The notes beneath the pieces were generated by a model. That model made no database searches and was not told the DNA's origin. It saw nothing but the letters and a program-made list of their open reading frames with translations. Position numbers and translations under genes: made by a program. A DNA stretch of 63,982 bases, the filler included, from Collodictyon triciliatum (lineage: Eukaryota), in assembly GCA_043381765.1 (NCBI GenBank). It is 5 parts of 5 records of this genome, joined end to end, with 100 filler letters (N's around TTAATTAATTAA, not from the genome) between each part and the next. Parts side by side here need not be neighbours in the genome. Positions count along the whole stretch, not along the records: positions 13,800 to 27,493 come from JBHJMP010001941.1; 4 more parts are not named here. One strand, given 5' to 3'. This document shows positions 14,031 to 17,000 of the stretch, in pieces. Each line of letters starts with the position of its first letter. The first letter of the stretch is position 1.

Positions 14031-17000
14031 CTAATGCCCTTCCTCTTCTTCCATCTCATTTGTCTCAAACTCGTGCTCTTCATCATTATCACCATCACCA
14101 CTGCCTGCGGCCTCGGCTTCAATCTCCATCACATCTTCGACAGCCCGAAGCGTGTCAGGATGTCCATCACCCAAGACCCGAATGCGAATGTCGCGGCAGA
14201 GGACGTAATACTTCAAGGCTTCCTGCAAATCCTCCGCGTTGTAGTACGTCGTGGCGAGATTAGAGTATGCAGTTGCCACAGACGCGTGCGACTCGCCATA
14301 CAAATCAACGCGGATTTGAATGCATTTTTTATAAAGCTCGATGGACTTTGTTGTCCTGTTGTTAAAGAAATGATAGTTAGAGTGGCTCGTCTTAATTAGC
14401 ATGGAGTTTTCTATTCCTTCTTCACAGTATCATCTTATATTTGTGTTTTTTTTATCGAGTTCTGTATGAACGTAAATGCGAATATCACGCTTGATGAGGG
14501 TAGATTCTTTTGATTTTGGCTTGTTTTGGCTTACTGTCCCATCTCAGCGTGCAAGTCAGCCATGTTGTTGTAAGACATGGCCACTTCAATGCTCTTTTCC
14601 CCAACTATGTTTCGGCGAATTCGTAGGGCTTCCTCATAGCATTGCATCGCTCCATCGAAGCTAGATATCAAATTATTTGATTAAAAGCCATATTTGTTAC
14701 AAGGATGCTTTTTCAATTGACCTTGCCCCTGTATTTCAAAAAAAAAACTTTAATCTACTGGATACACAGCGAGCTAAATATAACAACATCAATCGTTGTC
14801 TAGATTTACAATTTTTATTGCACATGCTTATCTTCTCTGCTGAGACTTTGGCATTTTATGAAATATCTCTGGTGTGGAAATATGTGATTGGTGCGAATAC
14901 TTTTTGATTTTAGTGTAGAGCGCCCCCAGATTGTTATATGATGTTGCGATGGTAAGACTTTCATTTTGCATACTTGACATTTTGATTTTCAGGGATTTCA
15001 TATGATATTCTGCTGCCTCTTCGAGCCTATAGAAATAAGTAATGTAGTTGCTGCTCGTTTTCACACTCCATCACCAGTTTAACAAATTTAGTTTCCGTGC
15101 ATCATAAAATAAGGATTCACACCTTCCTTGTTTTTCGTACGTGACAGCGAGGTTGTTCATGGAAACGGCAATATCGACATGGTTTTCCGGAAGTAGAATA
15201 AGTTTGATGTCGAGAGACTTTTTGTAGTACTTCATCGCTTCGGTAAAGCTAAACGCAGAGAATAGCTCTTAGTAGAAAATTATACCGTCCGATCCACGGT
15301 GAGACCGTAACACTTACAAAATGGGTTGTTTTCAGGACATTCCTGTACCCGTGTATTAGACCATTTCTTATTTTATTTAAAAAAAATATGTAAAGATGAA
15401 ACTTCAAGTATTCAATTGGCACACGTACTTCTTCTCCGCATCGTAAAAGCTTCCGATGTTGTTGTAGGTAATTGCGACATCCAAATGACATTCCCCAAGG
15501 ATGTGTCTTTTCATATTCAGTGATTTCTCAAAGTAATGCAACCCCTCAGTCAGTCTGCAAAGAAAATATCGGTTTAATGATTCATCAAAATATACAAAGC
15601 GCACCGGCATAATTCAATTACGATTCGTTTTTTTTTTTGGAGTAATATTTACCTTCCTTGTTGCTTAAAAAGAAGTCCAATATCATTGTATGTCGATGCA
15701 ATATCCATATGGCTCTTCCCATGAACCCTCAAGAACAAGTTCAAGGCTTTTTCGTAGTACTCTAGTGTCCTTTCGTAACTGAATGTTCGGGGTACAATTG
15801 ATAAAATCGTCCGAAAAAAATCAAGTGCTTCAAAACCTTAACCGTACAAGTTAACTTTTGATGACAAATTTGAAAAAAAATGTAAAAGCAATGTAGCTCA
15901 CCTGTGCATCGTGTAGAATACACGCCCTATATTGGCGTACAATCGAGCTGTCCCCGCATGGTTTTCACCGAAAAAATCCTTTTGGATACGAAGTGATTGA
16001 TTATAATATCTGAGGGCCTCGTCATACCTAGAAAGTGGATTACATTTGGTTATTATAACAATCCACTTTGTCTTGAATTACTTCAAGTTAAGATTTTATG
16101 CTTTTCTGACAGTTTTCCAACGATGTGAAATGAAGGCATCGAGGCGAAAATAAAACTACTTTTGAGTACGGACGAGAACACCTGCGATGTTGTTGTATCC
16201 TATTGCAACAAAAGGGTGATTTTGCCCTCTTGCTTTAGTGGTTTCTTCGATGTATGATTTGTAAGCCTCCTCTGCCTCTAAAAATCTGAAGTAATGGACG
16301 AGTAAATAAAGACACATTTCGTAGTCTTTGTAGATTTTAAATCATAAAATCTAGGTTCTATAAATACTCATGATTCGGCTAATGATAGTATGCAGGTCCA
16401 ATAAAATCGAGAGAGAAAATTAAACTACCTTCCTGCTGCCTCATGGATGGAACCGAGAGTTCCATAAGAAGCTGCAAGACTCGAAGACGACGCTGAATTC
16501 TTTTTCCTTATCTCAACACATTTTTCGTGGTATTTAATGGCGCTGCTGAAACTACATATCCATATATGGTCGAATTAATCGAAGTTTATTCTTCAAAACA
16601 TTCAGAAATAGAATTTGGACGAAAACAAAGAAAAATTCAATCAGTTGACATGGTAATAAAATAGACGAATCAAAATTTCGACAAACTCTCCAAGAGATTT
16701 GTAAACTGAGGCGATATTATTGTAGAGAGTTGCAATAGTCTCGAAATCTGTTCCTGTTCTTATGCAATACTCTAAATCCTTGAAATAGTATTCTAGTGCC
16801 TCCTCGTACCTTTTTTTTTTCGTCAGATATCAATAATGAAAGAAAAAAAACAATGCTGCAGGAGTATCCGAATTTACTTATATTTACAAAATATTAATAG
16901 TATATTACTCGCCGAGGCTGTTGCAAATCCTTGCAATTATGGAGTAGCTTTCGCTTGAAGCTGAAAATGGAGGGAGAAATATTATTAAGAAGACTGTAAT

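Follow-up and report, generated by a model that had tools for sequence, protein, structure and literature searches.

An exon-per-repeat tetratricopeptide array in an expressed NLR-like gene of the protist Collodictyon triciliatum

We analysed a stretch of 63,982 nucleotides from Collodictyon triciliatum (assembly GCA_043381765.1), hereafter the window, which joins five parts of five records end to end and takes its positions 13,800 to 27,493 from JBHJMP010001941.1. The window holds two related NLR-like genes, called here gene 1 and gene 2. Towards its 3′ end, gene 1 carries nine successive tetratricopeptide repeat (TPR) exons, referred to as cassettes 1–9, which a preliminary description had proposed as the basis of a diversifiable intracellular receptor system. 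The model of gene 1 (Table 1) has 1707 codons, 222 of them masked by a run of 666 N in exon 1 across which the frame is kept, and its introns average 143 nt. Exons 10–28 were taken from joints in sequence contigs of public runs, exons 1–9 were curated by hand from the sequence, and the start codon and 5′ end are predicted. The model is colinear with six homologues, the junctions being unbroken except in a variable stretch around exons 7–9.

The contigs come from two public runs (X1 and X2), whose kind is recorded only as guessed RNA, and were mapped on positions 13900–18990. They behave as complementary DNA (cDNA), in that they end in poly(A) at 13968 or 13971, which places the poly(A) site of gene 1 at ~13968–13971, and skip every intron; their loose ends resemble a template-switch oligo. 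Every boundary of exons 10–28, including all nine pairs of cassette boundaries, was reproduced in two of the three runs of one study, while the third yielded no contigs matching this stretch. The donor of exon 9 was confirmed by the loose end of an X1 contig, and the joined chain of exons 10–28 contains one stop only, the terminal one. Contig depth in the intron bins of gene 1 is next to nothing in both X1 and X2. The joint table has 19 rows, of which the 15 listed cover 14 introns, one of these twice; the other four rows equal the number of introns left in the stretch, from which we infer that there is no row for exon skipping. In the contigs of both runs cassette splicing is constitutive, which is weak evidence because contigs drop rare variants. 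A joint at 15780/15905 in X1 with one extra letter, considered as an alternative splice, is explained by the canonical joint together with a synonymous change at 15904. Two micro-exons proposed by automatic chaining (16378–16368 and 14799–14788), which had also dropped parts of DUF4062, were wrong and were replaced by contig joints and hand curation.

Each of the nine minus-strand cassettes is preceded by AG and followed by GT, two being 123 nt and seven 126 nt long. Joined together they form one open frame; each exon supplies with its first base the last letter of a codon begun in the preceding exon, so that the flanking introns are in phase 2. Ten phase-2 introns occupy this same repeat position, from the intron after exon 18 through that after exon 27; the intron upstream of exon 18 lies outside the periodic array, and the introns outside the repeat array of gene 1 are of mixed phases. 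A profile made from the cassettes finds eleven repeat units at a spacing of 41–43 residues, and the eleventh junction, within the terminal exon, is the sole repeat junction without an intron. Outside the repeats the mean length of internal exons is 120.5 nt, compared to 125.3 nt for the cassettes, showing that intron density is uniform along gene 1 and that only the periodic placement is special. This placement cannot be chance.

To establish what each exon encodes, the cassettes were aligned with the 34-residue TPR_1 model. Cassette residues 1–18 correspond to model positions 17–34 and residues 26–40 to positions 1–15, and by this register each cassette consists of helix B of one TPR, a linker and helix A of the next, with the repeat introns placed in the turn between helices A and B. 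Were an exon removed, an A helix would still be followed by a B helix. The nine exons of the preliminary description, with their coordinates, lengths and phase-2 AG/GT flanks, are confirmed in the sequence and in the cDNA-like contigs of the two runs, but the array is larger than nine, with its ten phase-2 introns and eleven TPR units. Likewise, its reading of one TPR per exon holds for the 41–42-residue repeat length but not for the content, which is not an intact TPR. Its point that cassettes can be lost or gained without a frameshift stands, all ten introns being in phase 2. In Pfam scans of gene 1, which were made on single-exon open reading frames (ORFs) and not on the spliced protein, the last exon matched TPR_12 with 71.2 bits and TPR_10 with 62 bits, and single cassettes reached up to 39 bits. 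On these profile matches the C-terminal repeats of gene 1 classify as KLC-type TPRs (TPR_12/TPR_10) with a 42-residue period.

Table 1. Features of the window discussed in the text, with the basis for each
Feature	Position	Strand	Basis
Gene 1, whole transcription unit: 28 exons, 27 GT-AG introns	13968–23018	-	contigs (exons 10–28), hand curation (exons 1–9)
Exon 1: start codon, Met-Gly...Ser N-terminus, ~515 low-complexity residues, first DUF4062 strand (predicted)	21397–23018	-	sequence; Pfam on last 55 residues
Exons 2–4: rest of DUF4062/NIR domain (TIR-like, putative NADase)	20426–21241	-	Pfam, PDB 11gz_A, colinear with D. rotans homologues
Codon of Glu629, last of exon 3, second Glu of S-V-T-E-x-E	20785–20787	-	alignment, TEP1 motif
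Exon 7: Walker A / P-loop G-M-G-K-S	19541–19723	-	model, hand-curated; 40% identical to paralogue's P-loop exon
Exon 10: Walker B (four hydrophobic residues, then Asp)	18771–18933	-	contigs, model
Exon 18: helix A of first TPR; donor opens first of ten phase-2 repeat introns	16909–16960	-	contigs, model
Cassette 1 = exon 19, 123 nt, phase 2-2	16687–16809	-	sequence, contigs, Pfam TPR
Cassette 2 = exon 20, 123 nt, phase 2-2	16429–16551	-	sequence, contigs
Cassette 3 = exon 21, 126 nt, phase 2-2	16160–16285	-	sequence, contigs
Cassette 4 = exon 22, 126 nt, phase 2-2	15902–16027	-	sequence, contigs, Pfam TPR
Cassette 5 = exon 23, 126 nt, phase 2-2	15653–15778	-	sequence, contigs
Cassette 6 = exon 24, 126 nt, phase 2-2	15429–15554	-	sequence, contigs
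Cassette 7 = exon 25, 126 nt, phase 2-2	15123–15248	-	sequence, contigs, Pfam TPR
Cassette 8 = exon 26, 126 nt, phase 2-2	14901–15026	-	sequence, contigs
Cassette 9 = exon 27, 126 nt, phase 2-2	14535–14660	-	sequence, contigs, Pfam TPR
Terminal coding exon: units 10 and 11 without intron between, capping helix, acidic tail, stop	14031–14355	-	TPR_12 E 8.5e-20, TPR_10 E 4.1e-17; contig joint, poly(A)
Gene 2, diverged paralogue: DUF4062 pieces, P-loop, Walker B, ~3–4 TPR units; approximate model	35594–41046	-	tblastn, Pfam
Gene 2 TPR exon: phase-2 introns both sides at gene 1 repeat position; one junction inside without intron	36272–36523	-	sequence; cassette-HMM match
Neighbour genes compared for GC3 and introns	3083–4798, 24362–25882, 27844–28542, 41838–42893, 56730–58357		
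N-run regions	10103–10634, 13700–13799, 22125–22790, 27494–27593, 41282–41381, 48424–48504, 55066–55165		

The repeats have diverged from one another, as had been noted before: amino-acid identity among the ten units compared averages 27.5% (15–42.5%), with 43% identity at the nucleotide level and 33% at third positions. Comparison of the ten repeat introns with one another gave no match. A hidden Markov model (HMM) of the cassettes, run in six frames over the whole window, recovered only the known gene 1 units and two gene 2 units, with no pseudo-exons in introns and no reverse-strand cassettes. Between the window and the contigs, exons 10–28 show 12 coding differences, 10 synonymous and 2 non-synonymous (pN/pS 0.05, binomial P 6e-6), and the TPR exons alone show 7 synonymous and 1 non-synonymous (pN/pS 0.04, P 1e-4), both ratios being comparisons of strains, not of paralogues. 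These differences point to selection that is purifying rather than diversifying.

The predicted protein of gene 1 is laid out as a DUF4062/NIR domain, a NACHT-type P-loop NTPase and eleven KLC-type TPRs, and the effector–NTPase–repeat order given in the preliminary description is thereby upheld, with Pfam DUF4062 on two exon pieces, a P-loop and Walker B, and the TPR_12/TPR_10 matches. The ORF of exon 3 matches DUF4062 (PF13271) with 25.5 bits, above the gathering cut-off of 24.7, and the last 55 residues of exon 1 cover profile positions 1–16 (20.2 bits, E 7e-4). The same exon 3 ORF matches the 220-residue NIR domain of Telomerase protein component 1 (TEP1) in PDB 11gz_A with E 3.2e-4, the S-V-T-E-x-E motif included, and full-length gene 1 aligns with the NIR–NTPase module of TEP1-like proteins over ~550 residues at 24–30% identity (best E 4e-53, at 30%). 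Two 2026 preprints (10.64898/2026.05.01.722283 and 10.64898/2026.09.04.749371) describe, in the passages concerned, DUF4062/NIR as a TIR-like NADase with a catalytic Glu, active in bacterial defence systems and in human TEP1, which together with the match to the solved TEP1 domain agrees with the TIR-like character claimed for it earlier. Eukaryotic copies, according to the same passages, are mostly N-terminal in NLR-like proteins, namely NWD1, NWD2, TEP1 and TTC41, with NPHP3 borderline. One of the two preprints names E1008 of TEP1 as catalytic. The column of Glu629 of gene 1 is invariant in 10 of 10 aligned homologues and the Glu is also kept in gene 2; Glu629 is likely the catalytic residue of the NIR domain, if it is rightly equated with E1008.

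Walker A in exon 7 and Walker B in exon 10 follow the order expected of a STAND NTPase. Exon-level Pfam matches in this part of gene 1 are weak (NPHP3_N 17.9 bits, AAA_22 18.3 bits). Homologues from Diphylleia rotans reach 22.7–25.7 bits for NACHT (cut-off 26.7), one of them 30.7 for NPHP3_N (cut-off 24.8), and nSTAND1 is found at 30–32 bits (cut-off 27.1) in two D. rotans homologues and in homologue P0042. With homologues near or above threshold for NACHT, NPHP3_N, nSTAND1 and AAA_16, we regard the domain as a NACHT-type STAND NTPase and choose no subfamily. The P-loop ORF found no match in a word-indexed protein search, and PDB searches with the P-loop exon and the exon of the winged-helix region returned chance-level rows only (E >= 1). 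The last exon gave 13 matches in the word-indexed search, generic TPR proteins of 31–41% identity, none of the 13 with DUF4062. At its predicted start codon the gene 1 protein begins with Met-Gly and has Ser at position 6, resembling a myristoylation signal. A neighbouring ankyrin-repeat ORF and gene 1 both open, at their predicted starts (24434–24450 on the plus strand and 23018–23000 on the minus strand, respectively), with Met-Gly followed by small residues in a myristoylation-like manner.

A mode of action may be proposed by analogy with bacterial NIR-Avs proteins, TEP1 and other NLRs: once the TPR solenoid has bound a ligand, NTP-dependent oligomerisation would be released, which would bring the NIR domains together for the hydrolysis of NAD+ and lead to a cell-autonomous defence or stress response. 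It is from this analogy that we infer a TPR-gated, oligomerisation-triggered NADase function for the protein.

Gene 2 lies ~12 kb upstream of gene 1 in the window, on the same strand, and its 5′ end is at or beyond the N run 41282–41381. In conserved pieces it is 25–40% identical to gene 1 ORFs by tblastn, and TPR_12 matches two of its TPR exons (E 1.7e-10 and 8.7e-11). The conserved DUF4062 motif is interrupted by an intron in gene 2 but not in gene 1. Of the three repeat junctions of gene 2, two have a phase-2 intron placed at the residue it occupies in gene 1, and the third lacks one. At the gene 2 P-loop the frame switches between two overlapping ORFs, for which a short intron, an assembly error and a pseudogene are candidates. 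The last intron of gene 2 contains a ~130-nt simple-repeat run, trinucleotide or other (region 35960–36090).

Beyond the window, a full HMMER search with exon 3 returned 33 proteins at E<=1e-3, and the spliced gene 1 protein is colinear with those homologues at 28–42% identity over up to 1224 residues. Twenty of the 33 were looked up: 13 belong to the D. rotans EukProt transcriptome, where they represent 13 Trinity components, and the others are metagenome or assembly proteins and one chytrid protein. A quick maximum-likelihood tree was built from 24 rows, comprising gene 1, a stitched partial gene 2, 17 of the 33 hits (6 of these 17 replaced by longer isoforms from their clusters) and, as outgroup, 5 of 20 TEP1-type proteins from a profile search among proteins of 2602–5000 residues. 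One clade of 13 rows (SH-aLRT 99) unites gene 1 and gene 2 with 11 D. rotans genes, and within it gene 1 belongs to a subclade of six (95) and is sister (87) to three D. rotans genes. Gene 1 thus has no one-to-one orthologue among the sequences sampled, and the family is expanded. The number of TPR units differs within it, with 11 in gene 1, 5–6 in the D. rotans long forms and ~3–4 in gene 2. A unit-by-unit comparison of gene 1 with three D. rotans homologues gave no diagonal and is silent on whether repeat order is conserved. Two D. rotans proteins of gene 1's closest subclade, P0023 (2619 aa) and P0020 (2314 aa), far exceed gene 1 in length, and their precomputed Pfam annotation lists many extra repeat and propeller families after the TPRs, suggesting that sensor regions vary widely in the family.

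The shorter Trinity isoforms of D. rotans offer a view of the intron position in relatives. When they were compared with the long forms, seven of nine, from four genes, ended at a cassette boundary or diverged right after it, running into a pyrimidine-rich intron-like tail or a short unrelated tail, and the other two diverged outside the repeats. One isoform has K in place of N, the change to be expected if the split codon is filled up by the G of a retained phase-2 intron. None of the nine has an internal deletion of 41–42 residues. Read as retained introns at the same position, these isoform ends suggest that the intron position is old and family-wide. We think it probable, with considerable room for doubt, that gene 1 is intact and expressed, that it belongs to a family of STAND/NLR-like NTPases expanded in this lineage, and that its exon-per-repeat array is an old layout inherited across this family, not an active generator of diversity. 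An ancestral 126-nt exon together with its phase-2 intron would have been duplicated in tandem long ago, which would explain why a phase-2 intron recurs at the same A/B turn in ten successive repeats. The copies would then have diverged to ~27% identity, their introns no longer alike, and the layout would have passed to the paralogues with occasional loss of introns and gain or loss of units. Since exons of symmetric 2-2 phase make such gain or loss frame-neutral, this origin fits the differing unit numbers among relatives, and symmetric phase may have helped the family to vary in repeat number.

The surroundings of the two genes differ from them in composition. The GC content at third codon positions (GC3) of gene 1 exons 2–28 is 0.47 and its introns have 30% GC; both NLR-like genes have a GC3 of 0.47–0.49 and about one intron per 120 nt, compared to a GC3 of 0.57–0.75 and uninterrupted ORFs of 0.6–1.7 kb for the ankyrin, LRR, Usp, RNR and fucosyltransferase-like neighbours. 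Simple repeats are plentiful in the intergenic stretches of the window, and a 100-nt simple-repeat run, trinucleotide or other, is found in the gene 1 intron between exons 9 and 10 (region 18990–19120). The window has 11 N runs, 8 of which form four pairs of 44 + 44 N with 12 bases between them; these pairs look like masking rather than assembly gaps. Two ORFs on the minus strand at 52731–53948 have S-x-D-G-G-x-T-W-like motifs and no Pfam match at E<=1e-3; the motifs resemble BNR/Asp-box repeats.

Several points weigh against an old inherited array in an intact NADase-type receptor. The intron density of gene 1 compared to its neighbours suggests that something besides plain inheritance may maintain the introns. 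In D. rotans the intron position is deduced from isoform ends and not from genomic sequence. The tree was made by a quick method, with gene 2 as a long branch from a stitched partial sequence, and it leaves out NPHP3, TTC41 and NWD1/2. Exons 1–9 and the start codon come from the sequence only, and the junctions of exons 7–9, which align poorly with the homologues, are the least certain. Contigs drop rare variants, so that rare cassette skipping may occur, and the polymorphism test is a small sample of 12 differences taken from contigs, one of them re-read from the odd joint. As for the protein, the domains of human NWD1, NWD2 and NPHP3 had no NADase activity under the conditions of one preprint, indicating that the conserved Glu is no guarantee of catalysis; the function proposed for the gene 1 protein comes from homology alone.

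One rival is that the receptor is actively diversified by means of its same-phase cassettes. In its widest form, the cassette design would be exploited throughout a family of NADase-armed receptors of this deep-branching protist lineage, the length of the TPR region being set between paralogues by gain and loss of whole exons and varied in cells by rare skipping or intron retention; if so, exon-modular sensor repertoires as proposed for brown algae would have originated, or been handed down, at a great distance from the stramenopiles, and would be tied to a TIR-like NADase effector. The ten phase-2 introns, by which any cassette could be removed or added in frame, are as this rival expects, and so are the expanded family with its range of 11, 5–6 and ~3–4 units, the presence of two members within a window of 64 kb, and the precedent in Ectocarpus, likewise with 126-nt TPR exons in the published passages; rare isoforms would moreover be invisible in contigs. 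Nevertheless, in each of the two runs with contigs of the gene all cassettes are joined in their order and none of the 19 joint rows is left for a skip, the most similar pair of cassettes is only 42.5% identical and the introns are mutually unmatched, the six-frame HMM scan of the window found no pseudo-exon or reverse-strand cassette, seven of the eight differences in TPR exons are synonymous, and the internal deletion of one repeat is seen in none of the nine shorter D. rotans isoforms. We consider diversification unlikely, both at gene 1 and in the family-wide form, and the diversifiable receptor system of the preliminary description is unsupported at this locus, given constitutive splicing in the contigs, a pN/pS of 0.05, the lack of pseudo-exons in the window and the divergence of the cassettes. 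Of the observations that it had named as arguing against such a system, a single constitutive isoform is what the contigs of two runs show, with the weakness already noted for contigs, and purifying selection is what the 10 synonymous against 2 non-synonymous differences indicate; repeat number, by contrast, is not conserved among relatives, and an expanded family stands in place of one-to-one orthology with NPHP3.

The layout might instead serve regulated intron retention, with the protein ending cleanly after n repeats to give a ladder of truncated sensors. Six of the ten repeat introns of gene 1 do read a stop directly after the split codon, and the boundary-bound ends of seven of the nine shorter D. 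rotans isoforms would fit such a ladder; a stop after a phase-2 GTAA, GTAG or GTGA donor, however, is what the donor consensus itself dictates, X1 and X2 show hardly any depth in the intron bins of gene 1, and retained introns are common in Trinity assemblies through unspliced pre-mRNA. This explanation appears very improbable to us. A similarly low probability attaches to gene 1 being the orthologue of NPHP3 (nephrocystin-3), hence a lipid-anchored ciliary scaffold and not an immune-type sensor. The two share an architecture, human NPHP3 having a borderline NIR domain in the preprint passage on it; gene 1 has weak Pfam matches to NPHP3_N and TPR_NPHP3, and the look-alikes of a D. rotans homologue include a chordate Nephrocystin-3 cluster. 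The predicted Met-Gly start with Ser at position 6 also resembles the myristoylated N-terminus of NPHP3, but it is absent from the D. rotans homologue whose N-terminus is shown, and only low-complexity sequence, with no other domain match, precedes DUF4062. Two paralogues in the window and a clade of 13 rows speak against a one-to-one relation, and the TPR_NPHP3 (PF24885) matches, from scans of single exons, amount to 13–19 bits against a cut-off of 100 and all fall on the same part of the model; the comparison was made without NPHP3 sequences. Least probable of all, we think, is an independent gain of each periodic intron through recurrent insertion at a favoured proto-splice sequence that conserved Gly-Lys/Arg codons would create in every repeat, with no inheritance from a duplicated exon–intron unit. 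Exon ends before the introns are mostly AAG, AAA or CAG, and intron presence differs between the paralogues, the DUF4062-motif intron of gene 2 being lacking in gene 1, both of which count in favour of such gain. Ten insertions at the same site and in the same phase would have been needed in gene 1, with that site used anew in gene 2 and presumably in four D. rotans genes; one origin, followed by duplication and occasional loss, is much the simpler account.

Published work already covers the protein class and the exon-per-TPR design; the novelty lies in finding both together in this lineage, supported by RNA and set in a family. Our literature search listed no paper on collodictyonid NLR-like genes or on exon-per-TPR NACHT genes, and Table S5 of 10.64898/2026.09.04.749371, on eukaryotic NIR hits, may already list the D. 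rotans proteins. As the relevant passages of the 2026 preprints have it, eukaryotic NIR copies are mostly NLR-like proteins of unknown function. The locus adds a clean, RNA-supported NIR–NACHT–TPR example from a little-studied protist lineage, with an expanded family and a regular exon-per-repeat design, and its protein is tractable for asking whether eukaryotic NIR–NACHT–TPR proteins are ligand-triggered NADases. Because the exon-per-repeat layout is found here without marks of ongoing shuffling, caution is due before symmetric repeat exons alone are taken to indicate a diversity generator.

Among known systems, the bacterial DUF4062–NACHT–TPR proteins, including the NIR-bearing Avs2, have the same domain order as gene 1, and one of them, PsAvs2, is reported to deplete NAD+ upon sensing a phage protein. 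Among the ten best named look-alike clusters of a D. rotans homologue, bacterial DUF4062/TPR_12/TPR_10 (and NACHT) proteins predominate; these are leads without alignments. Unlike gene 1, these bacterial proteins are prokaryotic and intron-less, and they are likened to it by domain order and not by sequence. The eukaryotic proteins TEP1, TTC41, NWD1/2 and NPHP3, as described in parts of the preprints, share with gene 1 an NIR domain N-terminal to a NACHT-type NTPase and followed by a repeat sensor, and TTC41 and NPHP3 have TPR C-termini as gene 1 does. The conserved Glu column is common to NIR-STAND proteins and gene 1. TEP1 has TROVE and WD40 parts and stands apart from the gene 1 family in the tree; TTC41, NWD1/2 and NPHP3 were compared with gene 1 by description, not by sequence. 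Unlike this eukaryotic NIR-STAND set, the gene 1 family is expanded in one protist lineage, and the ~515-residue low-complexity N-terminal region sets gene 1 apart from TEP1, TTC41, NWD1/2 and NPHP3.

Fungal NLRs also form expanded families, in which NACHT or NB-ARC is combined with TPR, ANK or WD40 repeats, and the repeats within one fungal gene are nearly identical and recombining. The gene 1 repeats, which are 15–42.5% identical, are unlike these. The NB-ARC–TPR genes of the brown alga Ectocarpus, with one exon per TPR, are the precedent that the preliminary description had invoked and that is indeed in print; the comparison is apt as to exon size, 124 TPR exons spread over 13 NB-ARC loci being 126 nt long (Zambounis et al. 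2012, PMC3341825). The algal NTPase is of the NB-ARC type and lacks an accompanying NIR domain, in contrast to NIR plus a NACHT-type NTPase in gene 1, and NB-ARC is absent from the Pfam matches of gene 1 exons and of 7 homologues. Parts of the same paper report inactivated TPR exons in introns, signs of shuffling or exchange, and diversifying selection in the Ectocarpus loci; pseudo-exons, closely similar exons or introns and diversifying selection were looked for in gene 1 and the window, and none was found. The Ectocarpus search motif starts two residues before the gene 1 cassette start, the residue and phase of the intron being unstated in the text available of that paper. Both systems, as far as the published passages describe the algal one, are multigene families that place KLC-type TPRs after a STAND NTPase and give each 42-residue repeat an exon of 126 nt; gene 1 stands beside the Ectocarpus NB-ARC–TPR genes as a second, independent case.

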